Of a DNA stretch of 64,000 bases, positions 1,081 through 57,397 are shown one piece after another. The notes under the pieces were generated by a model. That model had not been told where the DNA came from. It did no database searches and was given only the letters and a program-made list of their open reading frames with translations. A program made the position numbers and the translations under genes. The stretch's first letter is position 1, and every line of letters begins with the position of its first letter. This DNA comes from a virus. The DNA lies in IMG/VR virus record IMGVR_UViG_3300008120_000061, positions 11,942 through 75,941 of that record; one strand, given 5' to 3'.

Positions 1081-1333
1081 AATGGCTAGACTCCAGTATA
1101 TCACTTTTGATATGGAGTTTAGAGAATACACTTCCACAGGTAACTCTTTTAGTGGCGCTTATAACTTTTTTAGTTTAGAAGATATAGAGGCTCACAAAGA
1201 GAAGTCTGAAAGATATAAACAGATAGAAGCTTGGAATATAAAACATGCTAGCTTTAGGGATGCGTCCCCAATAAGACTTACTACGCATTCTATAGTGAAG
1301 AATTTGGAGAAATTAGATGGCGAACTTAGTTAG
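1049..1333 (+). CDS. Hypothetical protein (true start may be ATG 1070 or 1082)
   Basis: ORF fills the gap and overlaps both neighbours; no recognisable motif. Confidence 0.5.
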   Translation: MDFQTKIMLIEMARLQYITFDMEFREYTSTGNSFSGAYNFFSLEDIEAHKEKSERYKQIEAWNIKHASFRDASPIRLTTHSIVKNLEKLDGELS

Positions 1334-31076: not shown

Positions 31077-33200
31077 TTAGATAGCGCAACCTGTGCTATC
31101 ACAGAACTTATTAGCATTAGCATCTTCACCTTCCGCAGTTAGGGTGCTAAAGTCTAGAGGCAATAGAGTTGCGGCATAAGCTTCAATTTCTTCTCTAGGA
31201 GTAGAAATATATGGAGCTTGTGCATAACCATGATCGCTAAGCGGTAGTAAGCTAACTCCTTTTAGCTGCTTGTCAAAACAACTTAAAGCTCTAGCAATTT
31301 GAGACTTTTCATGTTCTCTAAAAGTGATAGTAATACTTACTTGGTTATCACTCCACTCACGCTGTAGATCAACAGCATTAGCAAATTGTTCCCAAATACT
31401 AACATCTTTATTGCTGATAGTACCTTTTTCATGTAGAACTGGGAAGTAAACTATAGAAGTTCTTGTAGGATCGCTAACTGCTGGTTCAATTCTGTAGTTA
31501 GCAGCTTGCATAATTGGTAGCAGTTCGCTTGTGTTAGAAACTCTAACTGTTCTATAGTAGCTTTCTGCTTCTGCGTGGTGAATACCAGGTAAAGCTCCTG
31601 CTACTAACGAAACTGTTCCACTTGGCTTTACGCTAGTCTTCTTAACAGAAAGAGGACTGCCTAGCCATTCAGAATACTTCTGATCTAAGTAGTTAACATA
31701 GTTGTAAGCTCTGTCACAGAATTCGTCTAGATACTTACGTCTTCCAAACTTTAGAATTGCTTCTTGAATACCGCTCTGAGAAGTGCCAATTCTACGATTA
31801 CGCTTAATAACGTCATTAGTTTCTCTCCAGTGAGTAGGAACTAATGTAACTGTTTTAGCGTATAGATATGCAAATTTTAGAGTACGCTGGAAGTCCCAAT
31901 AATCATTATGTTTTGCTGGGTAGGTTTCAACTAAGCAGCATAGTTCGTATGGCTCTAGTGACTGTTCTAAGCAAGGATTACCTCCGCGAACTCTGCTATC
32001 TTTCCAGTCAGCTGGATCTTTCATGCGTCCGTAAGCTTGCATATTTTCTAACCATGCAAATCCTGGCTCACCATTTACAGCAATGCTTTCAGCTGGTGCA
32101 GTATAATCCATACCTACTTTTGCAAATAGAGAGTTGTTAGATGCCCAACGCCATCCGCCGAACTTGTATGCCCAAATCTTATCCGAGTATTTTTTAGCGA
32201 TTACAGCTCTTGAGTTCCAATCACTGTTATAAGTGTTATAATCTTCTTCGTTAAGCTCTTTTAGCTCAATAGGTGCTATGGAACCAGTTTCAACTCCAAA
32301 CTGTTGCCAGTCTTTCATCTTAGTAAATTCTTCATCTTCAGGTTCGCCAAATGCAATTTCTGCTGTACGACGAACGTTACCCGCTACTACAATTTTACCA
32401 ATAATGTTCATAATATCAGTAATATCTACAGAGGTTAGTAGTGGATTATCACTTACAGCACGCTTTTCTAGTACATCACGAATACCATTAAATCCTTGTA
32501 CTAGCGGTTCTGGTCCAGAAGCTACACCACCAAATCCCTTAATAGGTTCGCCATAAGCACGAACTAAGCTAGTATCAGGAATTACAGGATTAGAACCTTC
32601 TTCCAAGTAAGAATCGATTAAGCAAGAAATTAGCTCTACCCAGCCTTCACGACTATCTTCTACAGTAATAAGTTCTGCATCGCCCTGCGGCACATAAGAA
32701 GCTACTTTACCTGCTCCTTTAGTATCAAAACCTACCCCAACTCCAACCATGCTCATATCCATTAAGAATGCGAATGGTTTAGATAGTTCTGCATCAATAT
32801 TTTCAGTACTAACAAAAGCACAGTTATTTAGGCAAGCTCCGCCTTTTTCCCACACAAAGTCAGTACCCATCATCCATAGTCCGCGACCTGGAGGAGTCCA
32901 TTTAAATGTGTATAGTCTAGTAGCTGCTTCTTCTGCTAGTTTATGGCCGCGCTTTTCATCCCAAGTATGACCAGAAGTTAATGAGTGTGTTTTTAAAATA
33001 GAAAACATACCTTCAATAACGCGTACTACGCACTCTGACCATGTTTCTAGTTTACCGTTATCCTTTTTTCTTGCATACGTTCTGTAGTATGTAAAAGCAG
33101 ATAAACCGCCGTAGCCCCAGCTTACCGGAGTGTTATATAGTTCATCCTTAAAGTTTTGTTTTAGTTGGAATTTAATTGGATTTTTTCCAATAGTAATCAT
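31077..33200 (-). CDS. nrdJ: Class II (adenosylcobalamin-dependent) ribonucleotide reductase
   Basis: 'YYRTYAR', 'PPGRGLW', 'LNNCAF', 'AGNVRRTAEI', 'GGNPCLEQSL', 'VKPSGT', C-term 'FCDSTGC'; no beta-subunit gene. Confidence 0.93.
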   Translation of the reverse strand: MITIGKNPIKFQLKQNFKDELYNTPVSWGYGGLSAFTYYRTYARKKDNGKLETWSECVVRVIEGMFSILKTHSLTSGHTWDEKRGHKLAEEAATRLYTFKWTPPGRGLWMMGTDFVWEKGGACLNNCAFVSTENIDAELSKPFAFLMDMSMVGVGVGFDTKGAGKVASYVPQGDAELITVEDSREGWVELISCLIDSYLEEGSNPVIPDTSLVRAYGEPIKGFGGVASGPEPLVQGFNGIRDVLEKRAVSDNPLLTSVDITDIMNIIGKIVVAGNVRRTAEIAFGEPEDEEFTKMKDWQQFGVETGSIAPIELKELNEEDYNTYNSDWNSRAVIAKKYSDKIWAYKFGGWRWASNNSLFAKVGMDYTAPAESIAVNGEPGFAWLENMQAYGRMKDPADWKDSRVRGGNPCLEQSLEPYELCCLVETYPAKHNDYWDFQRTLKFAYLYAKTVTLVPTHWRETNDVIKRNRRIGTSQSGIQEAILKFGRRKYLDEFCDRAYNYVNYLDQKYSEWLGSPLSVKKTSVKPSGTVSLVAGALPGIHHAEAESYYRTVRVSNTSELLPIMQAANYRIEPAVSDPTRTSIVYFPVLHEKGTISNKDVSIWEQFANAVDLQREWSDNQVSITITFREHEKSQIARALSCFDKQLKGVSLLPLSDHGYAQAPYISTPREEIEAYAATLLPLDFSTLTAEGEDANANKFCDSTGCAI

Positions 33201-35069: not shown

Positions 35070-36028
35070 TATTTTATACCTAATTTAGAGAATAGCTCAA
35101 GTACGCTATTTTTATTGTCTACTTTAATAAAATCTAAATACAAACTAAGCTCTTCTAATAATGATTTATCAGTTAAGTCTAACACAGAGTTTTCTGAAGG
35201 CTTATCTGCAATCTTTTTATCAAGCAGTTCATGATTTTTAATTTTACTTAGATTATCTATTGTACCAGTAACTTCATAGACGACATGGTGAAACTTATCT
35301 GCTACTAGTTCAGTTGAGACATCTACTGTTTTTCTTATAAGCTTAGGTAGTTCTAAATCTACAAATTCAATAGAATAGTTTTTATCGTCTATATAGTTTA
35401 TAATATTTACACCATACGCTCTACTGGCATCCCTATCAAATGTTGTATTAACAGGGCTCCCAGAATAGTACACATTATAATCTTTATACCTATGATTAAA
35501 ATGCAAATCGCCTAATAGTGTTAATGGCCAAGGCTTCAACTTATCAAAATCAAATTCTGCAGTGATGTGTGGAGGAACTTCTCCGCGAATATGAGTTATA
35601 AGTATATCGCCTTCTACATATGTAGGAATATTACCTACTTGCATTTCTCCATAAGGAAACAGCTGAAAGCCTTGACCATTAATTACTGTTCTAGCGTTTT
35701 TTGTGTGTAGTATGAAGTTATTATTGTTAATAGCATTTTCAGTTTCAAAGTGTTCTAAAAATGTATTACCTTTTGTAGACGCTTCATGATTACCTGGTAT
35801 TGCTAAAGTAGGCTTTGTAACAGAGTTAGCATAGCTTAGAAATACACATATTTCATCTGTCTCTGGTTTTTTGTCAAATATATCCCCAGCTAGAACAACA
35901 ACATCACAGTCTTGTTCTAGTTCTAACAGTTTCTGAAATAGTGCATTGAATCTATTTAATTGCCACTCATACGGAATCTTCTTTTTGTGAAGATTTATAT
36001 GAATATCTGCTACATGTAGTATTTTCAT
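35069..36028 (-). CDS. sbcD: SbcD/Mre11-like nuclease (T5 D12-like)
   Basis: 'ADIH', 'AGDIFD', 'PGNHE', 'GDLH', 'YSGSP'. Confidence 0.93.
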   Translation of the reverse strand: MKILHVADIHINLHKKKIPYEWQLNRFNALFQKLLELEQDCDVVVLAGDIFDKKPETDEICVFLSYANSVTKPTLAIPGNHEASTKGNTFLEHFETENAINNNNFILHTKNARTVINGQGFQLFPYGEMQVGNIPTYVEGDILITHIRGEVPPHITAEFDFDKLKPWPLTLLGDLHFNHRYKDYNVYYSGSPVNTTFDRDASRAYGVNIINYIDDKNYSIEFVDLELPKLIRKTVDVSTELVADKFHHVVYEVTGTIDNLSKIKNHELLDKKIADKPSENSVLDLTDKSLLEELSLYLDFIKVDNKNSVLELFSKLGIK

Positions 36029-36921
36029 TATGCCCTTTGCAATATGTTTGCTAGATTACCTTCAAATGTATAACTACCTACGTGATTTAGTTTAGTATTT
36101 GGGTCTACCCAAATCTCTCCGCCCATACGTTGCCATCTACGGCAGAACGCATAGTCTTCTGATAGATAGCGCCTATCAGTAGGATCAATTTCAGTATCCC
36201 AGAAAGCATAGCAATGTGGGTTAAACTTTGGATCAATAGATGAGTCGTTTTTATAATGAAGATCTGGATATTCTTTTACCATGCGTTCAATAACTTCGCG
36301 CTTTACGATAAAGAAACCGGTAGAAGCATCTAAAACTTCTACAGCACCCATATGAGTTCTTACTCGTCTGGTTTCAGGATCAGCTTTTAGATTGATAGCA
36401 TAATCAGCACCATAAGTAGCTATCTGATCAGTTTTTCCTGATTGTACTGCGTTTTGAACTTGACCCCAGTTTATTGTTTTCTTAGGGTATGCTCCTGCAA
36501 TAATATCTTTATCCATAGCAAGCATTCTAATAACTGCATCAGGATCAAATTCGATATCAGCATCAATAAACATTAGATGAGTGCAGCTTCTATCTTCTAA
36601 GAACATAGCTGTTAGAATATTTCTAGCACGAGTTACTAGACTCTCATTTCTTAATGTGGTAATTCTAAAACGAATTCCATGCTGCATAAGAACTTGAGAC
36701 ATTCTGAACATACTTAAAAAGTATTGGTCAGTTACAGCTCCACCATAGCATGGAGTTGCAAAAAAGATATTCATTTTCCTTAAAAAATTCATATCAATAG
36801 TTACTTTATCCCCATCAATAGAGCTAAATCCAGCAGGTAGCTGGTTAGTATCAGACGGAGTAGTCGGGGCTCTTTCAAGCCCCGAATTTGCTGCTAAATC
36901 TTTTAAGGATTTCTTACTCAT
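36028..36921 (-). CDS. GT-A fold glycosyltransferase-like protein
   Basis: 'FFATPCYGG', 'SLVTRARN', DxD in 'LMFIDADI', 'YLSEDYAFC'. Confidence 0.75.
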   Translation of the reverse strand: MSKKSLKDLAANSGLERAPTTPSDTNQLPAGFSSIDGDKVTIDMNFLRKMNIFFATPCYGGAVTDQYFLSMFRMSQVLMQHGIRFRITTLRNESLVTRARNILTAMFLEDRSCTHLMFIDADIEFDPDAVIRMLAMDKDIIAGAYPKKTINWGQVQNAVQSGKTDQIATYGADYAINLKADPETRRVRTHMGAVEVLDASTGFFIVKREVIERMVKEYPDLHYKNDSSIDPKFNPHCYAFWDTEIDPTDRRYLSEDYAFCRRWQRMGGEIWVDPNTKLNHVGSYTFEGNLANILQRA

Positions 36922-37573: not shown

Positions 37574-38005
37574 TTAGTTCTCCAGTGGAAATGTGATTTT
37601 ATCTTTGATTTTTCTTATCAAAGGGTTTGTGTGGTATTGTGGTTCTACGTAGTGTTCAGGTATCCAGTTGTTTTTATTTACTATAGATCTCTGACTTAAA
37701 ATATATAAATAATCGCTTTTTTCTTTAGCTGTAAATCTCATGTGTAAAAAAGAACAATCACGTATATAGCTTTGTGGTTCAATTGTTTTGTAGTGAGAGA
37801 ATACTCCAGTCCTATAAACTCCTATATATCCATAGTTAACCAAAGTACTCGGCATTTTAGTTAGTATTAGCTTTTTGCGTAATAACTCTAAACTACCAGA
37901 TAATTGTTTTTTAGTTCCTATACATAGGGCGAATATCAGAATAAGCTGCGATTCTGGTACTGTTGTTATAGAGTTTATCTCACACCAATTGTATTGTACT
38001 ACCAT
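37574..38005 (-). CDS. Hypothetical protein (positional equivalent of the T5 ORF upstream of D11)
   Basis: Synteny; ends 'TNPLIR..ITFPLE'. Confidence 0.55.
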   Translation of the reverse strand: MVVQYNWCEINSITTVPESQLILIFALCIGTKKQLSGSLELLRKKLILTKMPSTLVNYGYIGVYRTGVFSHYKTIEPQSYIRDCSFLHMRFTAKEKSDYLYILSQRSIVNKNNWIPEHYVEPQYHTNPLIRKIKDKITFPLEN

Positions 38006-38024: not shown

Positions 38025-39701
38025 TTAGTCAATATTAAAGTCACTATTAAATACTGTTTTAATTTCCTGACCTAATTGCTCAAATACTGAATTCCAATCT
38101 CTTAATTGTTTTTGTCTAATATTAGTAATAGATGGATACCAAGGGCTATCTTTTCTATCTAATAGCCATCTCCAATCAGGAGAGAAGGCGTGAAGTACGA
38201 ATGTCTTAAGATTGGCGCTTCCTGCTAAATGAGCTATCATAGAATCTACAGTGACTATTATCTTACATCTTTTTAGCAATACTAGAGTATCATCTAAATA
38301 ATTTAGCTTATCACTGTGATAGTCTACATTTGGCAGCTTATTTATGTTTTCATCTTTATCTAACTGTAGATTTAAAAACTTTAAGTTACTATGTTTAGTA
38401 ATAAACTGTTCTATTAGCTGGGTAGGCACAGATCTGTTTATATCATTATGATGCGCTTTAGATCCTTGCCATAGTATACCAATATCATAGGTAGGTATTA
38501 ACATCATATCACTGCTAATTTTATGTTCCTTAAAATTAGGTACAGCAGGGATAGTGTCAAGATTAGTTCTAAAAATTCTAGGTAAACTCATAAAAGATAC
38601 TTTATAGGCATACTTAGAATAATCATTCTTATGCCATCCTCTAACATACGAGTCAGATACGTAATCTTTATAGTTATTATGTAGAAACTCTCTAAAAGAT
38701 TTTGGTTCAGACGTAGAGTCTTCCCATTTTTCATATTGATTAGCGATAACTTCTATATCAATGTTTGATGCTCTAGAATGTACTAATGGTAAATATCTTG
38801 AGAACTGCAACAAGTCGCCTAGCCCTTGTTCTTGATACACTAACAGCTTCTTATCTTCCGGTAGCTTTTCACCATTCCAATTAGGTATATTATAGTTTTT
38901 TAGTCCTTGAAATTGCTTAGTATTTAGTCTAAACTCACAAAGTCTCCAACCTTTTTGAAAATCACCTTTTAGCAGTTGTAACATACCTTCTTGATATAGA
39001 GAATCCATCACTACTTCATAGTCTTCTGATTTTTGAGCTTTTTGTGCGGCAATTATTGCTTCGTCAATTTTCAGTAAACTAGAATAGGCAGAGGCTAAGT
39101 TTTTATTAATTAAGGGATCACCCAGGTCAAACTCTTCAGCAGCTACTAATAGTGATACTGCTTCTGAATAGTTATGAGTAGATAACAGACTAGCACCCCA
39201 CCCTGTTAATATATCTATTAACATACGTATATGCTCTTCTGAACTATTAAATTCAGCTTTTAGTAAATTATACGCTTTAGAAAAGTTATCAGTTGCTTTA
39301 AGTTGCTTACTAATATTACCTTTATACTTTTTACTTAGTACTAGTGCATAAGTTAGATAGTTTTGAGGTTTCTTAGAATTAAGTAGTAACAGTTGTTCTG
39401 CACATTCTTCTGCCTTACTAAACTCTCCAATTTCTAAATAGCTAGAAGCTAACCCAGTTATTGCATCTTCATTTAACGGGTTCTTAATTAGGGACTGCTC
39501 AAAGCAGCTTATAGCCTTTACATGATCGTTCATAGCTTGAGCTTTCCAGCCTTTTAAAAAGAAAGAAAAATAGTGAATGCCACTCAGTTTTCTCTTAGTT
39601 AAATTAATAGCTTTATCGAAGCAACCGGTAGTAGCTAGGTCAATTGCAGCATTGATAGTTTCTAGTTCTCTAGTATTTCGTAATTTTGTTTTCTGTACCA
39701 T
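38025..39701 (-). CDS. TPR-repeat GT-B (GT9-like) glycosyltransferase
   Basis: N-terminal TPRs, then 'GWRLCEFR', 'WNGE', 'EQGLGDLLQFSRY', 'MSLP', 'GILWQGS', 'TVDSMIAHLAG', 'DWRW..SPWYPS'. Confidence 0.85.
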   Translation of the reverse strand: MVQKTKLRNTRELETINAAIDLATTGCFDKAINLTKRKLSGIHYFSFFLKGWKAQAMNDHVKAISCFEQSLIKNPLNEDAITGLASSYLEIGEFSKAEECAEQLLLLNSKKPQNYLTYALVLSKKYKGNISKQLKATDNFSKAYNLLKAEFNSSEEHIRMLIDILTGWGASLLSTHNYSEAVSLLVAAEEFDLGDPLINKNLASAYSSLLKIDEAIIAAQKAQKSEDYEVVMDSLYQEGMLQLLKGDFQKGWRLCEFRLNTKQFQGLKNYNIPNWNGEKLPEDKKLLVYQEQGLGDLLQFSRYLPLVHSRASNIDIEVIANQYEKWEDSTSEPKSFREFLHNNYKDYVSDSYVRGWHKNDYSKYAYKVSFMSLPRIFRTNLDTIPAVPNFKEHKISSDMMLIPTYDIGILWQGSKAHHNDINRSVPTQLIEQFITKHSNLKFLNLQLDKDENINKLPNVDYHSDKLNYLDDTLVLLKRCKIIVTVDSMIAHLAGSANLKTFVLHAFSPDWRWLLDRKDSPWYPSITNIRQKQLRDWNSVFEQLGQEIKTVFNSDFNID

Positions 39702-40972
39702 TCTAATCTGCCCTGTTGCTGATTATATACTATAGGGCCTGTTAGCCAAAAGTCTATAATTAATGGATCTTTTTTATCTGGATGCCTTCTTAGAATACGC
39801 CCAATTCTTTGTTCTAGCTTTGCATAGTTATTTCCAGGGCAAGTGAACATAAGAGTATCTAATCTATGGCAACTAATACCTTCATCAAATATTTTTGTAG
39901 ATAGTATGGCAGAATACTTAGTTCCTGCATTTTTTAGTATATCTTCTCTTTGAGCGTTCTTAGTACTACCAACTAATAATACACTATTAGGAATTCTAGA
40001 CTGCAAATCTTCTAACATTTCTATGCGCTCACTTAATATAAGAGGGCATCTACCATGCGCTATTTTATCTCTTGCTACTTGAGCTATTAAATCTAAATAA
40101 GAAGTAGTCTTTGCTAGTTTAGTTAGTTGCCTAGTCCAGTCTCTGTTTGGATTTATTACTCTAAAAGGTACTTGAGTTTGTACTAATTGTACTGATGCTG
40201 ATAGCTTATCTACATTCTCTGCAATTATTCTATTTGGTCCGAAAAAGTCCGGTAATATAATATGTAAGCCGTCTTTTCTAGTAGGAGTAGCACTTAGTGC
40301 AATCTTTACACGAGCATTTACCCCGTTTACAGCTCTGCTAAATGTTTCTGCTGGACACAAATGAGCTTCATCTACAAACAACACTTCAAACTGATCTAAT
40401 ACTTTATCTAGTCTAGTAAGCAAAGACTTATATATTGCTATTGTTATAGGCTTTATTGATTCTTTACCGTCACCTATAAAACCTACTTCATCAACGTCTA
40501 TCAATTCTTTTATAGCATCTAACCATTGGTATGCTAATAGTTTAGTATGACATATTATAATAGTAGGTTTTTTATAATTCCCAATAAGATAAGTTCCTAA
40601 ATAAGTCTTACCCCAGCCACAATCAGCTTTAATTAATCCGCTGTAAAGCTTGTTATTTTGTAATAGCTTATCTGCAACAGATTGTTGCTCAGCTCTTAGC
40701 CCACCTTTAAATGACCAGCTCTGTTTATCCGTGTTAGCTCTTAGATCTTCTAACTCTAGTATCTCTAGCTTATGCCAAGATCCACTGGGAACGCTACACA
40801 TTCCAGTTTCTTCATCATACTCTAATGTAGAATAAAAGGTATCACCTAAATTATAGTTAAATAATACATATCTAAAGTCTTGAAAAGGAATATCTAATAT
40901 ATCGTCTCTATTAAAGTATATCTTATCAGAAATTGTAGCTTTACGTATTTTATATTTTATCTTACTGTTCAT
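39662..40972 (-). CDS. SF2 helicase (T5 D10-like)
   Basis: 'CGWGKT', 'DEAH', 'SATP', 'EQRIGRILR'. Confidence 0.92.
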   Translation of the reverse strand: MNSKIKYKIRKATISDKIYFNRDDILDIPFQDFRYVLFNYNLGDTFYSTLEYDEETGMCSVPSGSWHKLEILELEDLRANTDKQSWSFKGGLRAEQQSVADKLLQNNKLYSGLIKADCGWGKTYLGTYLIGNYKKPTIIICHTKLLAYQWLDAIKELIDVDEVGFIGDGKESIKPITIAIYKSLLTRLDKVLDQFEVLFVDEAHLCPAETFSRAVNGVNARVKIALSATPTRKDGLHIILPDFFGPNRIIAENVDKLSASVQLVQTQVPFRVINPNRDWTRQLTKLAKTTSYLDLIAQVARDKIAHGRCPLILSERIEMLEDLQSRIPNSVLLVGSTKNAQREDILKNAGTKYSAILSTKIFDEGISCHRLDTLMFTCPGNNYAKLEQRIGRILRRHPDKKDPLIIDFWLTGPIVYNQQQGRLEWYRKQNYEILEN

Positions 40973-43772: not shown

Positions 43773-44660
43773 ATATAAATTATCTTCAATATTGCCTAAA
43801 AAGTGTTCAGCTATTTCTTTATTGAAACTACCTGGATCTAAACCATCAGTAAGAACAATATTATTGGTTTCTATATTTCTTTGTTCTAGTAGCTTTTCAA
43901 TCTTAGCTGCCGCTTGTTTACCCGCAGAGTCGCCATCCATTAGTATGGTGACTTTTCTACATCCATATTCATCTAGTAGTTTAGCCTTTTGAGCTGTAAA
44001 GTTTTGGGTGCCAAAGATACATAGGCTATTTGTATATCCTAAATCATGCAGTTTTAGCACATCAAATAATCCTTCTACTAAGATTACATGTGAGAAGTCC
44101 GCTATTCTATCTAAGGGAAATAGAATATCACTCACAGATACTCCGGCTGGTTTTCTTAAATATTTAGGCATACTAATAGAGCTGCTAAGAACTTTGTATC
44201 TGCCTTCTATGAATTTTAGTTTTTTGTGTTGATATATAGGTATGCAAGCATAATCACTCAACCCATTAGAGTCTGTGAAGAAAGCTCCAAAGTCTTTTAG
44301 AGTTTTTGCTCTAATACCTTTAAAATCATGACTCAAAGCAATTGTTGGCTCAGGCAGCCTAACCTCTCCTTGATATCTGATGTTATCTAGTTTATTCTTT
44401 AGCTTTTTTATTTTAAAAGACATTTTAGATGCAATTTGAAATGTGCTTTTAATTCCTAGCCCTTCCAAGAATTGTTGAGTATTTCCTCTATGTCCACATG
44501 CAAAGCAATGAAATACATTCTTTTCTAGATTTAGAGAAAGACTAGGATTAGAATCGACGTGCAAACCACTAAAACATCTTACAGTTAGTTCAGTAGGCTT
44601 ATTAGGATTAACAACATAATCAATGCTGTTATCCTTTAGCACGTCTTCCATATTATCCAT
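43758..44660 (-). CDS. DNA primase
   Basis: Zn finger (C..H-D..PS...CFAC) and TOPRIM motifs 'LVEGLFD', 'MDGDSAG', 'DPG'. Confidence 0.93.
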   Translation of the reverse strand: MDNMEDVLKDNSIDYVVNPNKPTELTVRCFSGLHVDSNPSLSLNLEKNVFHCFACGHRGNTQQFLEGLGIKSTFQIASKMSFKIKKLKNKLDNIRYQGEVRLPEPTIALSHDFKGIRAKTLKDFGAFFTDSNGLSDYACIPIYQHKKLKFIEGRYKVLSSSISMPKYLRKPAGVSVSDILFPLDRIADFSHVILVEGLFDVLKLHDLGYTNSLCIFGTQNFTAQKAKLLDEYGCRKVTILMDGDSAGKQAAAKIEKLLEQRNIETNNIVLTDGLDPGSFNKEIAEHFLGNIEDNLYLTNA

Positions 44661-45030
44661 TCTGATTATCTCCAGGCATCACTCTAAAGTTATCTTCTGC
44701 TGAATCTGCAGTACTAACTTCAATAATCTCACTATCATCTTCTAAAGCTATTAGCTGATGCACTTGTAGAGGCATAATTCTGATAGAATCTCCAGTGCGA
44801 AGAGTCTGCTCAATGATACTGCCATTTTCAGTATTAATAAGTTTTAATGTGAATAATCCTTTTTGCACATACCATGTTTCATCTTTTTTATGGTGAAAGT
44901 GCATTGAAAACTTATTCCCAACTTTGTTAAAGTGAAGTATCTTTCCACAATATAAATCATTAGTGGCAAAGATATACTCATACCCCCATCCCTTAGGAAT
45001 ATGACCGCTAAACCTCGTTACGCTTGACAT
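44653..45030 (-). CDS. Cupin, sugar-phosphate isomerase-like
   Basis: 'PKGWGYE', 'FSMHFH..KDETWYV', 'VHQL', 'IEVST'. Confidence 0.8.
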   Translation of the reverse strand: MSSVTRFSGHIPKGWGYEYIFATNDLYCGKILHFNKVGNKFSMHFHHKKDETWYVQKGLFTLKLINTENGSIIEQTLRTGDSIRIMPLQVHQLIALEDDSEIIEVSTADSAEDNFRVMPGDNQNG

Positions 45031-45877
45031 AAGCTGTTCCTTTCTTTGTTACAGCTATTGCAGATACTTTAGTAGCAAATTCAATAGCTTTGTTTATCGT
45101 ATTATTTTCATATAAAGAAGATGCCAGTGCTGCTAGAAAACTATCTCCAGCTCCCGTAACATCTATTGCTTTAACAGAAAATGCAGAATACTCTTTATAT
45201 AATCCTTTTTTAGTGGCAGTTACGCAACCCTCAGATCCTTTAGTTACTATGAGATTATCTACATTTAGTGCCTTTGCTGACTCTATTAGTAATTCTCTTG
45301 TAATAGTTGTTTCATTTGTCCAATCTAAAAATTCTTTTAAATTAGGTTTAAGTACGAATGTATTTTTATATTTATCTAGATCTTTCTTAGGGTCTACTAA
45401 TACTGGAATCTTTAATTCTACAGCAGCTTTAATAATACCATTAGGATTTATAATACTACCCTTATTATAATCGCTTAGAACTATTATACTAGGTCTATTT
45501 TCTAGTACTTTATTAGCTAGTTGATTAGTATCACATTTTATGCTATCATCATAGTCTATTCTAGATATATAAGCTCCATTACTATACAGTCTTACTTTAG
45601 TAATATCACTATCTGCATAATTTACTACGCTATCATAAGTTAACTGTTCTTCTTCTAATAGCTTTGCTAAGATAGATTTATTACTAGTAAGGGCAGTAAA
45701 TAGTTTTACCGGACTTCCTAAGTATTTTATGTTTAAAGCTGTATTACCAGCTCCACCTAGTTTATTTATAGTTTCATATACACTAACTACCGGGGCAGTA
45801 TCGCACTCAGGAGACATACGAACACTGCTACCCAGCAGATATTTATCTAACATAATATCTCCAATAACTGCTATCAC
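45008..45877 (-). CDS. PfkB-family kinase, HldE/RfaE heptose-7-phosphate kinase domain
   Basis: 'VIGDIMLDKY..G...RMSPE..APV', 'GGAGNTA', 'LSDYNKG', 'VDPK', 'KPN', 'DVTGAGD'. Confidence 0.88.
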   Translation of the reverse strand: MIAVIGDIMLDKYLLGSSVRMSPECDTAPVVSVYETINKLGGAGNTALNIKYLGSPVKLFTALTSNKSILAKLLEEEQLTYDSVVNYADSDITKVRLYSNGAYISRIDYDDSIKCDTNQLANKVLENRPSIIVLSDYNKGSIINPNGIIKAAVELKIPVLVDPKKDLDKYKNTFVLKPNLKEFLDWTNETTITRELLIESAKALNVDNLIVTKGSEGCVTATKKGLYKEYSAFSVKAIDVTGAGDSFLAALASSLYENNTINKAIEFATKVSAIAVTKKGTAYVKRNEV

Positions 45878-50517: not shown

Positions 50518-50822
50518 TTAATTTCTTCCTCGTCTGGTTTATTTACAATCCGATCTACTTTTTTTCTCCATAAATCAGTTATTAATTCTGATGCGTCACT
50601 TAGTAGATGCACCCAAGTATCTATATGCTCTTCAGTGACTGAAATTCCATTTGTAGTTCTTAACCACTCACCAGTATCCCCATCTTGATAATACTCTCTG
50701 GTGTGTACTCTAACTACCCCTCTCCACTTATTAACCGTAACCTTTATCGCTCTGTTCACGCCTTTTTGTGGAGGTAAATCGCAAATAAATCCTAAATCAT
50801 ATTCTTCATCACTATCAGACAT
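50514..50822 (-). CDS. PC4/YdbC-like ssDNA-binding protein
   Basis: 'VTVNKWRG..VHTREYY....GEW..T.NGIS'. Confidence 0.8.
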   Translation of the reverse strand: MSDSDEEYDLGFICDLPPQKGVNRAIKVTVNKWRGVVRVHTREYYQDGDTGEWLRTTNGISVTEEHIDTWVHLLSDASELITDLWRKKVDRIVNKPDEEEIK

Positions 50823-51933
50823 GCTTACTCCTAACTGTACTAGAAGCGTTTGAAATTTTAGTCACAACTTCATAGTACTTATTACCAACTTCCGTCCAAG
50901 TATTTAATAACGATGTATCTACTGATATAGTTTTTAAGTTATTAATAACATAGTGAAGTTGTTTAGCTAGATCATTTGCGTCTGGTTCTAGCACCCATTT
51001 ATGACCGCCCATTTGTGTCATTGCGTCTTCTGCTTTTAGACCAAAAATTTCATACATATTTACTATTCGTTTAGAGCTAGCAATCTTAAAGTCTTTTACA
51101 AACTCATCAGTAGGTCCGCCGAAAGTTACTATAGGTACACATCCACAGGCCATAGCTTCCTGTACGTGCATACCAAAACCTTCACCTCTATAAGGATGAA
51201 CTAGTACGTGCGCTTGTTTGTATAGCGCAGCCATTTCTTCTTCACTTCTAACACTATCATCATATATAATATCTGCACATTTAGTTTTGTATTGCAGCTT
51301 TACAATATCTTCTTGAGTGTTAGACGCTCCATAAACTTGTGGAGTATCTTTAATAATTAGTTGAACTGGTGTACCTTGTTTAGTTATTTGACTCCATACA
51401 CTCAGTAGTATGTCTAATCCTTTTCTAAATTGGTGACAACCTACATACAGTACTGTAATTTTAGTGTTGTCTTTAGTGTTTGGTTTATTAAATATATCTG
51501 GATTGTATCCATTAGGAATAGAGACTACTCTTTGAGGATTAATCCCACTATTTAAATATACTTCTCTTGTCCATTCACTAGGAGTTATTAGCAAATCTGC
51601 AAATGTCTCAAATTTGTATTGCCACTCAAAAGGAACAGCCATGTATTCCCAAGGCTGAATAAAAACAATTTTTGTGTTATTACCAACGGGCCAACGCCAC
51701 ATTGGAGGATAGGTATGCCTAATCTGAACATCAACACTATCGAGTGGTTTATTAACCAAGCTAGATATAGTTTGAGCATCGATTTTAGATAACTTATGGT
51801 CTGATGAATAGGTGTCGAGCGCAGAAATTGATAAGTTAACTTTATCTTTAAGCTGCAAAGCAATATTTCTATTTACAATAGACAGTGAATGGTTGTCAAA
51901 CACTTTGCCGATTAGTTCTACATTAATTGCCAT
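50815..51933 (-). CDS. GT4 (GT-B, retaining) glycosyltransferase
   Basis: 'IPNGY', 'RKGLDILL', 'HPYRGEGFGMHVQEAMACG'. Confidence 0.92.
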   Translation of the reverse strand: MAINVELIGKVFDNHSLSIVNRNIALQLKDKVNLSISALDTYSSDHKLSKIDAQTISSLVNKPLDSVDVQIRHTYPPMWRWPVGNNTKIVFIQPWEYMAVPFEWQYKFETFADLLITPSEWTREVYLNSGINPQRVVSIPNGYNPDIFNKPNTKDNTKITVLYVGCHQFRKGLDILLSVWSQITKQGTPVQLIIKDTPQVYGASNTQEDIVKLQYKTKCADIIYDDSVRSEEEMAALYKQAHVLVHPYRGEGFGMHVQEAMACGCVPIVTFGGPTDEFVKDFKIASSKRIVNMYEIFGLKAEDAMTQMGGHKWVLEPDANDLAKQLHYVINNLKTISVDTSLLNTWTEVGNKYYEVVTKISNASSTVRSKHV

Positions 51934-52756
51934 ATAACAGCCTCGCTTCTTGCTTACAATAACTATTTAGTTCGTCTTTATGCACTAGCTTTAGTGTTGG
52001 CCATTGCGGACCCATATTACTAGTTTTAAAATTAATCATATCTCTATAGTTAGTAGCGTTTACTGTTTTTTGTATATCGTAGAACGGATCACGTTTACTT
52101 TCAATAGAATGACCGAAGTTGTTTACTTTTACTGTTAAATCTTTATCAGGTCTACAAAAGCTGTAGTGTAGTATTCCTAATGGAGATTTAAGTTTTTTAG
52201 GTGCGTTAGTCCATCTGCAATAGGTATAAGTATGTATATTTTTCCAAGCACTAAATCCTTGTACGTCTTTAGTAAATACGTGATTTCTATTCTCATCGGC
52301 AATTATTAAGTAGCCTTCTGGAAGCTCTTTATAAAGCAAAAACCATGTAAACATTAGCTCTACGTCTTTATAGTTCTCTACTAGCGGGCAAAAGTCTTCA
52401 AAGAACTCTTTAGCGTTAATTAGTATTTCGTCTGCGTCAAACGAGAAGATCCAATCATTGCTACACTGTTCTTTTAGAAAGTTGCGTTCATGAGTATCGT
52501 TCTCAATGGGAACTCTACTGCGATGAAAATTTTCTTCTACTACAGTAACTTTGCCCTCAGTATCTATTTCAGATAAAGCTTTCCATAGTTCATCTTCATC
52601 AAAACTAAAACGGTTACCGCTCCAACTAATTCTATCTTTATCCAGACCTAAAACTATTTCGTCTACATAGTTATAATAGCTTTTAATGCTTTCTGGTAAA
52701 TAATGTGCGTCATAACTAATTAGACTTATCACGCTCTTCTTTTGTGTAGACTTCAT
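51923..52756 (-). CDS. GT2-like glycosyltransferase
   Basis: 'SYYNYVDEIV', 'ERNFL', 'WIFSFDADE', 'ILHYS'. Confidence 0.85.
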   Translation of the reverse strand: MKSTQKKSVISLISYDAHYLPESIKSYYNYVDEIVLGLDKDRISWSGNRFSFDEDELWKALSEIDTEGKVTVVEENFHRSRVPIENDTHERNFLKEQCSNDWIFSFDADEILINAKEFFEDFCPLVENYKDVELMFTWFLLYKELPEGYLIIADENRNHVFTKDVQGFSAWKNIHTYTYCRWTNAPKKLKSPLGILHYSFCRPDKDLTVKVNNFGHSIESKRDPFYDIQKTVNATNYRDMINFKTSNMGPQWPTLKLVHKDELNSYCKQEARLLYGN

Positions 52757-52803
52757 ATAATCCTATCCCTTTATCCCATAAGTGTTTTTGTTGAGCATAC
52801 GCC

Positions 52804-53622
52804 TTACGTCTTTTTGACGCTGCTAGCGCTCTTTTTTGTGCTCTTACTATTGACTTCTTTTGTTTCTTCATATACTATCTCATCTATAGATTTCATTAGA
52901 TTACTAGACTTCCATTTTTCCATAAAAATAGATTGGTTTATTCGCCATTTATCTCTTTTTTCTGGGTCTGAGGCTTGTATTCTTTTGTTGTCTTTCCCCT
53001 CGAAGTGTAATAGCTTAACAGGTGTTTGATATATTTTCCAGCCAAGGCTACGGGCAGAAAGACAGTAATCCACGTCACGATAGTAAGTCCAATGAAAGCT
53101 GGGATCAAAATTGCCAACGGCAGAAAGCATAGCGCTGCGCAAATATACACCGCCGAATGTAACCCAGGATACGTTTCTAATTTTTCCGTTGTATTGTCCT
53201 TTGTCTGACTCCACTTTTCTAGATGCGCTTCCGTTAGAGAGATCAAGCCCTCCTCCGTAATGTATTGCCTCGCCATTTTCAAATCTCCCACCGGCGTGTT
53301 GTATAAAGTAATTACCTTCTTCATCGGTAGCCGGATATAATAGTGTTGTTCCAAACATGCCAGCTTCTGGAAAGCGTTTGGCATAATCGCATAGTTTATG
53401 ATACCAGTTGTTGTTTATATCTTCAGGTAGAGGTAACATATCAGCATGTAATAGAATAATATCTCTATTAGGATTAGTATTCCATAAAGTTTGATAAGCT
53501 AAATCACTACCTATTCTACCACGATCTTCCCAAAATACAACTGGCACGTCCCACTTTAGGGCTGCTTTTAGCGGTTGAATTTCTTGTTGATTAACATAAG
53601 GTACTACTACTAACGGTTCCAT
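52804..53622 (-). CDS. GT2 glycosyltransferase
   Basis: 'IILLHAD', 'IQHAGG', 'VGNFD', 'YYRDVDYC', 'LLHFEG'. Confidence 0.88.
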   Translation of the reverse strand: MEPLVVVPYVNQQEIQPLKAALKWDVPVVFWEDRGRIGSDLAYQTLWNTNPNRDIILLHADMLPLPEDINNNWYHKLCDYAKRFPEAGMFGTTLLYPATDEEGNYFIQHAGGRFENGEAIHYGGGLDLSNGSASRKVESDKGQYNGKIRNVSWVTFGGVYLRSAMLSAVGNFDPSFHWTYYRDVDYCLSARSLGWKIYQTPVKLLHFEGKDNKRIQASDPEKRDKWRINQSIFMEKWKSSNLMKSIDEIVYEETKEVNSKSTKKSASSVKKT

Positions 53623-54590
53623 AAATTCTTACCTTTTTGTTCATACCAATCTGCAAATAATTCCATAATAGCATCTGGGCTAATATTATGAACGCATGAA
53701 AAACCATTGCTAGTTTCATCACACATTTTAGGCCAGAATCCCATAGACGCATGTGGACCTTCTGGATACTTATTATCTTCGCTATATATCTTTGGCTTTA
53801 CGCAATCATAGTTTCCACAATGTATGGCAGATTTTAGCGTTTTATGCCAACCGCTGTGGTAATGCTCTGGACTATCATACTCAGCAGGAAAAACCGATGG
53901 TATTGTAATAGTGTCTAATCCTAGACCTGCGGCTGCATGAGAGTGCAATCCCATAGGTCCAATAAAAATATGACTATTATTAAGTTTTCTCAGTGAGTCT
54001 AATAACGATCCATATTCTACATCTCTACCCAACAATGCTATTCTAGCTTTTATATTATTTTGTTCTAAGTAGTATTTTAGTTTAGATAAAAATCCGATGC
54101 GCATAGCTTCATTTTTAGTTTTTCTATTCCAGTCAAGTGGTCCAACAGTAGAAATAACTATATGATCGCTAGGCAAATTCTTATCACTACCTACATTAAA
54201 CACAGTCTCAGTATTCCAAAAATCATCTTTACCATACTGTGCGAATAGTGTAGATGATTGGCTGCGTACTATTCCTAAATCACTAAACCACGCATGTTGT
54301 TCAATAATCTCATTAAACTCTACCGACTCTTTAGAGCCGAATAACTTCACAGACATACCGTTTATAGTTCTTACAATTTGTCCCACTCCTGCAATGCCTT
54401 CTTGTAAAGAAAGCACATGAAGTATATCTATATTTTCTTTTTCACCCTCTGATGTGGTAGGTACTAGGTTTTCTCTAGTGCAAAAGTATATATTAGTATT
54501 AGGAAATTTTTGCTTATACAATCTAGCTGTATGAGTTCCTAGTATACAGTCTCCAACTGCTTGCGAATTGTATATTAGTACATTTTTCAT
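53610..54590 (-). CDS. GT9 (heptosyltransferase)-like glycosyltransferase
   Basis: 'AVGDCILGT..YKQKFPN', 'FIGPMGLHSHAAAGLG', Cys-rich C-term ending 'CVHNISPD'. Confidence 0.72.
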   Translation of the reverse strand: MKNVLIYNSQAVGDCILGTHTARLYKQKFPNTNIYFCTRENLVPTTSEGEKENIDILHVLSLQEGIAGVGQIVRTINGMSVKLFGSKESVEFNEIIEQHAWFSDLGIVRSQSSTLFAQYGKDDFWNTETVFNVGSDKNLPSDHIVISTVGPLDWNRKTKNEAMRIGFLSKLKYYLEQNNIKARIALLGRDVEYGSLLDSLRKLNNSHIFIGPMGLHSHAAAGLGLDTITIPSVFPAEYDSPEHYHSGWHKTLKSAIHCGNYDCVKPKIYSEDNKYPEGPHASMGFWPKMCDETSNGFSCVHNISPDAIMELFADWYEQKGKNLWNR

Positions 54591-54599
54591 TAAATTTCC

Positions 54600-55637
54600 T
54601 TAAGCGTTAAATAGTTTATCAGTCCAAGTTTTAGGTGTGGAAGGCGTAATAATCTCTAGATCTAAATGATATTTAAAGTCTCTATTAGGCTGAGTACGCA
54701 TCCAGTTTACAGTATCTGCAATAGTTTCATCAGTAGAATTATTAGTTGCGTAGTTTAGCACAGTTTTAGCTTTGGTAGTAGATACCCATGCATCTTTTAC
54801 TTCCCTAGGACGTTCAGGTAGATGTGTTATATTAGGATCTACATTAAAGTATCTACTTACCTTAACTGCCAGTTCTTTTACTGTTATCTCAGTTCCATCA
54901 TCGGGTCCTATATTGAATACTTCTCCAGATCCTATGCTATCTCTAGAGTTGTAAGCAGTTACATACGCATCTACACAGTCTGTTACATGAGAGAATGAAC
55001 GTTTTTGCGACCCGTCTCCGTATATGTATATAGGTTTATTACGTTTTAACTGATTAGCAAAAATACTCATAACATTTCTAAATGGATCACTGTAGCATTG
55101 ATGCGGTCCGCATACATTATGAGGAACCATTGTAATAACTTTAATGCCATGAATGTCACTCATTAGCTTTAAATGCTGTTCAGCGTGTAGCTTAGCTAAT
55201 CCATATGGGTCTATAGGAGTAGGAATTGTTTCATCTTCAATAAATGGAGGATTCTGTGCTCCATATCTAGCCATTGAACTAGTATTAATAAACGTTGCAA
55301 CATCGTTTGCACAAGCGGCGCTGGCTACTGATGCTGTTCCTGCATAAATATTTTCAACAATTGTTTTAGGTGCAAATACGCTTAGCCCTTCGTGAGCTAA
55401 TGCAGCACAGTGTATAACAGCTTCTGGCTTATGAAACTTAAATATTTCAGAAAGTCGCTTAGTATTTAAAATGTCTATATTATAATAGTAAAAGCTTTTG
55501 TTTTGCTCTGGCATATTGCTGGCGTAGCCACCAATTAAGTTATCTACACCAACTACAATATATCCTAACTCTAAAAACTTATAGCAAAGATGGCTACCTA
55601 TTAGTCCAGCGCTACCAGTAATTACAATAGTTTTCAT
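54600..55637 (-). CDS. NAD-dependent NDP-sugar epimerase/dehydratase
   Basis: 'ITGSAGLIG', 'HCAA', 'TSSMARYG', YxxxK 'YGLAK', 'GDGSQKRSF'. Confidence 0.93.
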   Translation of the reverse strand: MKTIVITGSAGLIGSHLCYKFLELGYIVVGVDNLIGGYASNMPEQNKSFYYYNIDILNTKRLSEIFKFHKPEAVIHCAALAHEGLSVFAPKTIVENIYAGTASVASAACANDVATFINTSSMARYGAQNPPFIEDETIPTPIDPYGLAKLHAEQHLKLMSDIHGIKVITMVPHNVCGPHQCYSDPFRNVMSIFANQLKRNKPIYIYGDGSQKRSFSHVTDCVDAYVTAYNSRDSIGSGEVFNIGPDDGTEITVKELAVKVSRYFNVDPNITHLPERPREVKDAWVSTTKAKTVLNYATNNSTDETIADTVNWMRTQPNRDFKYHLDLEIITPSTPKTWTDKLFNA

Positions 55638-56143
55638 GCTTTCTCACCGTAAACACAGAAGCTAAATGCGCTATCTCTTTGAGAAGCATAAACATTTTTA
55701 AATCCTAACTTATATTCAAAGTAGAATCTAAGCTGTTGAGGCTCAAAGTTATTAACATGTCGCTTAGTAGGCATAAATCTAGTATCCCAATACTCACAAT
55801 CTGTGTGTGGTAGATATAGAAAAATTATGCCATTAGAAACAAGCGAGTCGCTCCAATATTGCAGAGTTTCTTCCCAGTTTTCTATATGCTCTAAGCAATG
55901 AGAAGAGAATATGTATTCTAAGTTTCCAGCATTAGGCAGGTTATTAGCGTGCCAATCATCAGGAAGTTCTAAATCCGCCAAAAGAGCTCCTGGATAAGCC
56001 CATTCAGGTTTTTTACATCCAACATCTACTCCAAGGGTTTTTTCTGCAAGAACATGTTTTGCAACAGGTAAAATAAACTGAGCATGGTTTCCATGACTAA
56101 TAAAGTCTGGATAGTTTTTATCATTGAATTTATTTAATTTCAT
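55634..56143 (-). CDS. Class I SAM-dependent methyltransferase
   Basis: 'GVDVGC', 'IFSSHCLEH', 'GIIFLYLP'; likely ATG at 56143, coupled to the upstream stop. Confidence 0.82.
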   Translation of the reverse strand: MKLNKFNDKNYPDFISHGNHAQFILPVAKHVLAEKTLGVDVGCKKPEWAYPGALLADLELPDDWHANNLPNAGNLEYIFSSHCLEHIENWEETLQYWSDSLVSNGIIFLYLPHTDCEYWDTRFMPTKRHVNNFEPQQLRFYFEYKLGFKNVYASQRDSAFSFCVYGEKA

Positions 56144-56703
56144 TATAATACCTTTACTAGTACTACGTACCCTTGTTCTGTCCAAGTCATTGGCCAAGCT
56201 TGAATCAACTCTATTAATCCTTGCTCTTCTAGCTTAACTATAGCTGCGTGTATACCATTTGAATGACCTTCAATTACATCGTCATATGCTAGCCACTTAG
56301 CTCCTTTTTCAATAGACAGCATACTATCAGAAAGAGTAGCTTCAAATGTGTGTTCTCCATCAATAAAAGCCATGTCTACTGTAGGTATAACCCAGTCTTT
56401 AGCTATTTGATGAGTAGAGTTGGCTAGCAACCAATCAACATGTACATCGGTGAAAGTTTCTTTCGTTGCGTGCAAGGCTGCTTCTGTATCTGGATGATAA
56501 TTAATATCTATTATATACAGAGTTTTTATTCCAGATTGAATCCAAGTAGCAGCACTATATCCTATATTAAAACCTATTTCAAGCATAGAATTAGCTTTAG
56601 TTATATCAATAATACTATTAGCTACTTTTATACAGTCTATAGTAGACCAGTAACCTTCAGAACTAGAAAATTTTCTTAAATGATCGTATTGTAACTTATA
56701 CAT
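56143..56703 (-). CDS. Class I SAM-dependent O-methyltransferase-like protein
   Basis: 'MLEIGFNIGYSA', 'AFIDGEH', 'AYDD'. Confidence 0.87.
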   Translation of the reverse strand: MYKLQYDHLRKFSSSEGYWSTIDCIKVANSIIDITKANSMLEIGFNIGYSAATWIQSGIKTLYIIDINYHPDTEAALHATKETFTDVHVDWLLANSTHQIAKDWVIPTVDMAFIDGEHTFEATLSDSMLSIEKGAKWLAYDDVIEGHSNGIHAAIVKLEEQGLIELIQAWPMTWTEQGYVVLVKVL

Positions 56704-57397
56704 CTACACTCTCCCAAATTTTATCCCAATTTACTAGCGGTGTATGGTGTCTGTCTGTCATATGACTTGCCACTCCTGGTAGCGGATTTATACATGGAAC
56801 TGTTTTATAAATCTCTTCAAATACTTTATCATTACTAGTAGGTGCCGCTTGTTTTAGGGCTGGCATATGAGCTAGCCAAGTGGAGCCTTTAGCAATTGCA
56901 GTCATAGTACCACTATCTATTGTTCTCCAGTGTCTGTCTTTACCTACTAAAACTTGGCAAGGCTTTGGGGGATTATATCTATCTGGATAATCATAAGGAA
57001 CTGCAAAATAAGCCCATGAAAATAATGTATCCCGAAGCACATTTAGTGCGTCGGGAGTATGTAGATAATCATCTTCTACGATATAATGTAACTCTTCGGG
57101 AAATTCCTTAGAGTAGTTTTCTAGAGTTTCTACTAAAGTTACTGTGTGCTGGTGAAACTCCCACGAATGAGACGGAACAGATACTTTTATAAGTTCTGAT
57201 TTACTATTAGCATATAACCAAGCTAAGGTATCAGGAGATAAGGAATCCTCAATTAAGACTACCTTATCTCCCGATGAAATACTATTTTGAATTGACAACC
57301 AGCATTTTTTCAGTATAATTGTTTTATTAGTATTATTAAAACGAGTTACATAGGAAATAGTATTTTGTTTTTCGCAAGCTCTAAAGTAGATTATCAT
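56696..57397 (-). CDS. GT-A fold glycosyltransferase-like protein
   Basis: 'HYIVEDDYLH', 'YDYPDRY', 'PLPGVASH'; first gene of the glycan operon. Confidence 0.72.
   Translation of the reverse strand: MIIYFRACEKQNTISYVTRFNNTNKTIILKKCWLSIQNSISSGDKVVLIEDSLSPDTLAWLYANSKSELIKVSVPSHSWEFHQHTVTLVETLENYSKEFPEELHYIVEDDYLHTPDALNVLRDTLFSWAYFAVPYDYPDRYNPPKPCQVLVGKDRHWRTIDSGTMTAIAKGSTWLAHMPALKQAAPTSNDKVFEEIYKTVPCINPLPGVASHMTDRHHTPLVNWDKIWESVDV

Follow-up and report, generated by a model that had tools for sequence, protein, structure and literature searches.

The window examined here, a 64-kb stretch of viral DNA taken from the 75.9-kb IMG/VR virus record IMGVR_UViG_3300008120_000061 (estimated completeness ~71%), carries a gene whose product fuses an array of tetratricopeptide repeats (TPRs) to a glycosyltransferase domain of the GT-B type with the fold of GT9, the heptosyltransferase family. 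The protein, here called TPR-GT (P0001), is predicted to be a soluble cytoplasmic two-domain glycosyltransferase. We consider the chances about even that it is a TPR-guided heptosyltransferase acting on a presumed protein acceptor, with a supply of ADP-heptose that is aided by the phage. The gene and its two domains are as follows.

38025..39701, minus strand: gene for the TPR and GT9-like protein, 558 aa (open reading frame (ORF), translation, orthologues and AlphaFold2 model)
38892..39701, minus strand: N-terminal TPR-like solenoid, residues 1-270, ~7 helix pairs
38037..38864, minus strand: C-terminal GT-B domain with GT9 (heptosyltransferase) fold, residues 280-555

This two-part architecture, described in the initial annotation, was confirmed. 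TPR repeats are detected by Pfam at residues ~50-126 (TPR_2, E-value 1.7e-11), and the AlphaFold2 model (predicted local distance difference test 90.8, with 39 orthologues in the alignment) has 14-15 helices spanning residues 10-269, followed by two Rossmann-like halves. The C-terminal half has a marginal match to the GT9 domain PF01075 (15.4 bits, E-value 0.012, profile positions 175-229), which lies below the Pfam gathering score of 22 bits, while a precomputed PF01075 match is present in approximately half of the orthologues. A profile search of PDB sequences reached WaaF alone (E-value 0.025, WaaF residues 251-294). No family match to TPR-GT was found in PHROGs, and those in NCBIfam were TPR-driven only.

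Foldseek searches with the whole chain are dominated by TPR proteins, the top matches being O-GlcNAc transferase (OGT) and SPINDLY (E-value 1e-10), with a TPR-containing capsule polymerase (8qoy) also among them. The leading position of OGT and SPINDLY is due to the TPRs and the domain order, and superposition on OGT gives a root-mean-square deviation of ~11 Å. The catalytic domain was therefore folded alone. The resulting model possesses a GT-B fold with WaaC and WaaF as the nearest structures, TibC and PnsB1 being also among the solved GT9-fold matches, while no GT41 chains are among the matches listed for it. Thus the likeness to OGT that had been proposed at the outset holds for the layout, TPRs followed by GT-B, but probably not for the catalytic domain, which is GT9-like and apparently not GT41, and OGT is best regarded as an architectural analogy only.

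The predicted active site lies in four short stretches of the C-terminal domain.

38814..38831, minus strand: EQGLGD, residues 291-296, with D296 as predicted catalytic base at the position of WaaC D13 (orthologue invariance and structural alignment)
38430..38438, minus strand: NRS, residues 422-424, with R423 as candidate counterpart of WaaC K192 (phosphate/anomeric-carbon contact)
38220..38249, minus strand: VDSMIAHLAG, donor-binding motif, residues 485-494, with D486 corresponding to WaaC D261 and H491 to WaaC H266 (hhalign)
38136..38177, minus strand: DWRW...SPWY, residues 509-522, a family signature absent in WaaC and WaaF (invariance in phage and bacterial members)

In an hhalign comparison of the domain profile with WaaC, WaaF and WaaU of E. 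coli K-12, VTVDSMIAHLAGS is aligned on WaaC VSVDTGLSHLTAAL (probability 91.7, E-value 7.9e-7), which pairs D486 with D261 and H491 with H266. The structural alignment sets WaaC residue 1 at model residue 40, and D296 therefore occupies the position of D13. No lysine is aligned to WaaC K192; for this role the invariant R423 of an NRSxP motif is a candidate by position, as it follows the first strand in the C-terminal half. In HepI (WaaC), the mutations D13A, D261A and K192A reduce activity 4688-, 2027- and 926-fold, respectively (reviewed in PMC5713226).

Among the 39 orthologues, with identities down to 36%, E291, Q292, G293, G295, D296, G413, S414, R423 and S424 are invariant, as are D486, M488, H491, D509, W510, R511, W512, W521 and Y522. 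When bacterial relatives are added, G293, G295, D296, S424, Q446, D486, H491, W510-W512 and W521-Y522 are still invariant, and R423 is conserved at 90% or above family-wide. A degenerate donor site, which the initial annotation had named as the finding that would speak against its reading, is thus not what is seen: D296, R423, D486 and H491 are invariant in the phage orthologues, and the presence of D296 and of D486/H491 in the bacterial relatives as well indicates that the active site is not degenerate. These invariant motifs also make it very improbable that TPR-GT is a TPR adaptor or regulator with a catalytically dead glycosyltransferase domain, comparable to PnsB1, a GT9-fold structural subunit of the chloroplast NADH dehydrogenase-like (NDH) complex. 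The co-encoding of genes for a donor pathway is a further point against such a role.

These donor genes, together with a cupin gene, are located both within the window and in the 11.9 kb of the same record outside it, which were also read.

45008..45877, minus strand: HldA-like D-glycero-beta-D-manno-heptose-7-phosphate kinase (TIGR02198 rfaE_dom_I, E-value 2e-58; PfkB, E-value 7e-36)
44653..45030, minus strand: cupin overlapping the kinase gene and kept beside it in relatives (Cupin_2, E-value 5.8e-7; Lyx_isomer, 3.9e-6; WbuC cupin, E-value 5e-4)
G000:C1:1019-2432 (L021), outside the window on the same record: HldD-like ADP-glyceromanno-heptose 6-epimerase and HldC-like heptose-1-phosphate adenylyltransferase

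The kinase scores 198 bits with the NCBIfam model rfaE_dom_I (the heptose-7-phosphate kinase domain of HldE) versus 85 bits for ribokinase, the curated cut-off of 345 not being reached. The HldD-like protein scores 211 bits with TIGR02197 versus 92 for GalE, and the HldC-like protein 110 bits with TIGR02199. The record thus encodes three of the five steps to ADP-L-glycero-beta-D-manno-heptose (HldA-, HldC- and HldD-like), and because this set is present on the same record as TPR-GT, ADP-heptose is the most likely candidate for its donor. The HldD- and HldC-like genes adjoin a tail-fibre gene and a 5′-truncated glycosyltransferase gene (L021:1-579) with a weak GT9 donor motif (PF01075, E-value 0.005). 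As a guess, the cupin could be a sugar or sugar-phosphate isomerase. Homologous heptose genes have been annotated in the cyanomyoviruses S-CAM1, S-SSM7 and P-SSM2/5 without a functional tie, so a heptose pathway in a phage is not itself new.

Two small nucleotidyltransferase-like ORFs with 29-40% identity to the HldC-like protein occur in the record of a close relative (G001, 2490-2933 and 25313-25756), within the ~32 kb by which it reaches past the end of the studied record. On the studied record itself there is a 181-aa ORF beside the HldD-like gene (L021:591-1136) that has an HxD...H-like pattern and the look of a 2-oxoglutarate (2OG)-Fe(II) oxygenase, but no Pfam match. In cyanophages P-SSM2 and Sf-FS3 the homologous epimerase gene adjoins a 2OG-Fe(II) oxygenase or prolyl hydroxylase gene, and an oxygenase beside the epimerase hints at hydroxylation preceding glycosylation.

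The phage has further genes that appear to be involved in glycan synthesis.

36028..36921, minus strand: GT-A-like accessory gene two genes downstream of TPR-GT (phrog_1574, E-value 3.5e-50; Anp1, 2e-4; Glycos_transf_2, 0.011)
50815..57397, minus strand: glycan cluster with a GT4, a GT2-like gene, two ORFs without assignment (one weakly GT9-like), a GalE-like epimerase, two methyltransferases and one more unassigned ORF

The first belongs to a family (phrog_1574) that is absent in T5-like coliphages and present in cyanophages, Caulobacter phage Cr30, and Sinorhizobium and Pelagibacter phages, and a homolog lies directly upstream of a TPR-GT relative in an unrelated 355-kb viral contig (L116:8762-9418). 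In the cluster, the matches are Glycos_transf_1 (E-value 1e-18), Epimerase (1.4e-52; GalE, 143 bits), Methyltransf_23 (8.7e-7) and Methyltransf_24 (1.7e-7). In total the phage has ~15 glycan genes, the two methyltransferases included. Further ORFs considered as GT9-like, at 53610-54590 (N-terminal motif, 18%) and at the 5′ end of the record, were rejected with hhalign probabilities of only 18-21%.

The canonical task of GT9 enzymes offers another explanation, in which TPR-GT is a heptosyltransferase for lipopolysaccharide (LPS) or glycolipid that remodels the host envelope, its TPRs being a scaffold for oligomerisation or enzyme docking. Among the solved GT9-fold matches, WaaC and WaaF act on the LPS core (PMC5713226), TibC is the sole protein heptosyltransferase and PnsB1 is the chloroplast NDH subunit; the phage supplies ADP-heptose enzymes, the heptose genes of cyanophages are annotated with no tie to a function, and TPR-containing capsule polymerases exist (8qoy). 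However, genes for 3-deoxy-D-manno-octulosonic acid (Kdo), lipid A and O-antigen ligase are not among the top neighbour families of the bacterial relatives, which reach up to ~15 paralogues per genome and in some cases are flagellin-adjacent, and the phage genes examined showed neither a flippase nor a membrane-anchored partner. The LPS explanation is accordingly considered unlikely.

If TPR-GT is instead a protein heptosyltransferase, its mechanism could be as follows. ADP-L-glycero-beta-D-manno-heptose would be made with the help of the phage HldA-like kinase, HldC-like adenylyltransferase and HldD-like epimerase, and the sugar nucleotide would be held by the region of R423, D486 and H491, as in WaaC. 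The TPR solenoid, with its seven repeats, would take up an extended part of the acceptor protein so that a side-chain hydroxyl reaches the active site, where D296 may serve as general base on this hydroxyl, again as in WaaC. Extension and capping of the glycan would potentially fall to the remaining glycosyltransferases of the phage and to the two methyltransferases. The division of labour would be like that of FlmG, the flagellin O-glycosyltransferase of Caulobacter and Brevundimonas, with the TPRs for the acceptor and GT-B for the donor, while in its chemistry the enzyme would be like TibC, a protein heptosyltransferase. For FlmG it has been shown that the protein acceptor is bound through the TPRs and that the donor is chosen by the GT-B domain (PMC7591256; bioRxiv 10.1101/2022.03.25.485807), which bears out the precedent on which the initial annotation had drawn, namely that TPRs select the protein substrate.

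The family of TPR-GT is not confined to phages. A search with the catalytic domain returned 4640 proteins at E<1e-5, and relatives are present at 594 or more loci in species-representative bacterial genomes and on at least 551 IMG/VR stretches, with 132 of the 401 alphaproteobacterial genomes sampled having one. The nearest cellular relatives are proteins of 850-970 aa in Bradyrhizobium, Magnetococcales, deltaproteobacteria, cyanobacteria and others, some with a tandem [TPR-GT]x2 arrangement. The genome of Azospirillum brasilense (G005, reached via locus L077) has ~15 paralogues, several of them in tandem on one contig (C161, C127). After the TPR region, the family is characterised by the motifs GxxxxGW..E.R, EQGxGDxxQF, W.G...H.ND.NRS, (V/I)D(S/T)xxxHLAG and PDWRW..R.DSPWY, all five of which are found in TPR-GT and in the Bradyrhizobium and deltaproteobacterial proteins. 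Members are publicly named as 'tetratricopeptide repeat protein' only, and no paper joining TPR, GT9 and protein glycosylation was found.

In some bacteria, family members lie beside flagellin genes. A Pfam scan of 150 ORFs flanking 43 bacterial loci showed Flagellin_N/Flagellin_C (5 ORFs) to be the commonest neighbours after TPR paralogues, and a motif scan identified 8 flagellin genes in 6 of 80 bacterial loci (861 kb), from five phyla. Assuming approximately one flagellin gene per Mb, ~0.9 would be expected, giving a Poisson P of ~3e-4 for the six loci as a rough figure. Relatives in other phages lie near structural genes. In the unrelated podovirus MW202512 the relative is two genes after the major capsid gene and is followed by genes for an FkbM methyltransferase, a GalT-like transferase, a stabilisation protein and an acyltransferase, while in cyanophage BUCT-ZZ01 it is found among the tail-fibre genes.

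In the window, TPR-GT has the following neighbours.

39662..40972, minus strand: upstream T5-like superfamily 2 helicase gene (ResIII, E-value 2.5e-19; Helicase_C, 8e-11; phrog_16)
39662..39701, minus strand: overlap of 40 nt in which the helicase gene ends and TPR-GT begins (ORF coordinates)
37574..38005, minus strand: 143-aa gene directly downstream of TPR-GT, with no Pfam, PHROG or NCBIfam matches

The overlap with the helicase gene, already seen in the initial annotation, is 40 nt long and is kept in every relative examined (L003-L014). Synteny is strict in the clade, the order being helicase, TPR-GT, the 143-aa gene, the single-strand-binding protein gene, the GT-A-like gene, SbcD and SbcC. 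Approximately 50 full-length orthologues of 36-99% identity form one clade, mostly on contigs with this same gene order. TPR-GT evolves roughly twice as fast as its neighbours, being 36-38% identical where these are 65-83% identical, and both halves of the protein diverge equally (averaging 44.7% identity N-terminally and 46.4% C-terminally). The 143-aa gene evolves as fast as TPR-GT, with 45-49% identity against ~70% for its neighbours and 65-83% for the replication genes of the same relatives, and the HldA-like kinase gene of the window is also fast-evolving in the clade. The 143-aa gene is always directly downstream of TPR-GT, and its product is a possible partner, adaptor or substrate. Metatranscriptome contigs match small pieces of the TPR-GT gene, but these are not counted as evidence of expression because DNA carry-over is possible.

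This genomic position, between the helicase and single-strand-binding genes and overlapping the former, is one of two points in favour of TPR-GT adding heptose to a hydroxymethylated base of the phage DNA, which would shield it from restriction and CRISPR. The other is that phage gene clusters placing mono- or di-heptose on 5-hydroxymethylcytosine are documented (bioRxiv 10.1101/2023.12.21.572611). However, the DNA heptosyltransferase documented there is T4 beta-GT-like and not GT9, a TPR solenoid is a binder of peptides, and the bacterial family is too widespread for a function in phage DNA. Neither a ThyS-type hydroxymethylase nor a C5-cytosine methyltransferase was found in the record and four relatives. 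One of these relatives (G001) extends ~32 kb past the end of the studied record, so that the pan-genome covered is ~108 kb, roughly a whole genome, and the absence of both enzymes from it weakens the case for DNA glycosylation. A search for Tet_JBP gave no match, but the control was equally silent and the result is uninformative. Overall, modification of DNA is regarded as improbable.

The same operon position bears on the nature of the protein acceptor. With the same enzyme and donor, the acceptor could be a host protein modified early in infection, such as flagellin, pilin, an outer-membrane receptor precursor, or a defence or translation factor, for the purpose of takeover, superinfection exclusion or keeping progeny off debris. 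The gene is located in an early/replication operon and overlaps the helicase gene, its ~2-fold faster evolution is as expected of a host-facing protein, some of the bacterial relatives adjoin flagellin genes, and FlmG offers a precedent (PMC7591256). On the other hand, fast evolution is common in accessory genes without an arms race, the phage clade lies outside the flagellin-adjacent part of the tree, and ~15 glycan genes represent a large outlay for the masking of one host protein. As the relatives in other phages sit within structural modules and so many glycan genes are invested, a virion protein is slightly favoured as the acceptor, and a host target is rated as a minority possibility, a little ahead of the LPS explanation.

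For protein heptosylation by TPR-GT itself, a number of observations weigh on the opposite side. The gene lies within a replication operon and away from the structural genes. Sequence likeness to characterised GT9 enzymes is limited to one motif, and TPR domains can also serve as scaffolds, for example in capsule polymerases (8qoy). With regard to the donor, searches of the record and four relatives for GmhA (SIS_2) and GmhB (histidinol-phosphatase family) gave no match. Of 73 unrelated viral loci with a relative, none has an HldA or HldC gene within 10 kb of it, and the evidence for heptose therefore comes from this phage clade only. A tree of the catalytic domain unites the 39 phage orthologues in one clade (SH-aLRT 100), which has a long stem, lies among beta- and alphaproteobacterial sequences and is weakly placed as sister of an Undibacterium protein, while all six flagellin-adjacent members fall outside this part of the tree. 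The 16 bacterial loci nearest to the phage clade have TPR paralogues only, and flagellin or LPS-core genes are not among their leading neighbour families. The protein-targeting glycosyltransferase put forward in the initial annotation is therefore borne out in part: its enzyme class holds, with an intact site and a likely donor, whereas an initiating role, an acceptor among virion proteins or host flagellin/pilin, and receptor masking stay proposals. Support was added by the HldA/HldC/HldD set of the phage, the flagellin genes next to some bacterial members and the relative near the capsid gene of another phage.

A broader proposal is put forward tentatively, and with clearly less assurance than protein heptosylation by TPR-GT alone. 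According to this, TPR-GT would be an active enzyme within a very large family, as yet unnamed, of cytoplasmic protein glycosyltransferases that are guided by TPRs and based on the heptosyltransferase fold. Next to TibC/AAH, this would represent a second class of protein heptosyltransferases of independent standing, and the phage, with its own ADP-heptose genes and about a dozen further glycan genes, would coat a virion or host protein with a methyl-capped, heptose-containing glycan.

The closest isolates to the phage are T5-like phages, to which its DNA polymerase is ~40% and its helicase 28% identical. The region around TPR-GT is carried near-verbatim by lake and freshwater metagenomes of more than 10 studies (2019-2025), indicating that this is a common freshwater phage. 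No tRNA genes, looked for as a hint to the host, were found in the window. Following two tail-assembly-chaperone genes there is a single ORF of 3899 aa (6552-18251, plus strand) in the tape-measure position, which is very long for a T5-like phage. The window also has a head-tail adaptor gene (1317-2585, plus strand; phrog_442 at the C-terminus) with an insert of ~230 aa matching baseplate and virion structural protein families, and a class II (B12-dependent) ribonucleotide reductase gene (31077-33200, minus strand), which at 83-93% identity is more conserved within the clade than any other gene of the region.

To our knowledge, protein heptosylation has so far been known solely from the TibC/AAH autotransporter system. 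Should TPR-GT be active on protein, the fusion would unite protein heptosylation of this kind with the TPR-guided cytoplasmic O-glycosylation of OGT/SPINDLY and FlmG. It would also provide a handle on a family found, often in multiple copies, in a third of the sampled alphaproteobacterial genomes and on hundreds of viral contigs, widen the range of virion or host-protein glycosylation beyond mycobacteriophages to include a T5-like lineage that is widespread in freshwater, and suggest a possible role for the cyanophage heptose genes annotated without function. An enzyme with modular TPR (acceptor) and glycosyltransferase (donor) parts would be of practical interest for glyco-engineering.

With respect to known systems, mycobacteriophages have glycosyltransferases that decorate their own capsid and tail-tube subunits, as described in papers citing this work (Freeman et al. 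2023, cited in PMC12619734 and PMC12801897). The likeness, drawn from those descriptions, lies in the glycosyltransferases being phage-encoded; the two citing papers make no mention of TPR fusions, GT9 domains or a heptose pathway. OGT and SPINDLY (GT41) likewise have a TPR array followed by GT-B, with the TPR lumen picking the protein substrates, but differ in their GT41 catalytic domain and in their donors, UDP-GlcNAc and GDP-fucose. WaaC (HepI) and WaaF (HepII) of CAZy family GT9 lack TPRs and use Kdo2-lipid A or core as acceptor; their sequence likeness to TPR-GT is limited to ~40 residues, and the DWRW...SPWY signature belongs to the phage family. TibC/AAH (BAHT; PDB 4rap, 4rb4) shares the GT9-type fold. 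According to the titles of these PDB entries and of the paper by Lu et al. 2014 (cited in PMC7591256), TibC is an iron-containing dodecamer without TPRs, whereas TPR-GT, at 13% identity, has a TPR array and, in its glycosyltransferase domain, one invariant cysteine (C479) with nothing suggestive of an iron finger. FlmG, compared by architecture and description, transfers pseudaminic or legionaminic acid, whereas the co-encoded pathway of the phage points to heptose. It is also reported as confined to Caulobacterales, and no flagellin genes or genes for these two sugars were seen among the phage genes examined, flagellin adjacency being found in another branch of the family only. Nevertheless, both are soluble chains of similar size (596 aa for FlmG versus 558 aa for TPR-GT) with an N-terminal TPR region followed by GT-B at the C-terminus, and TPR-GT would, like FlmG, act in the cytoplasm with a soluble nucleotide sugar.

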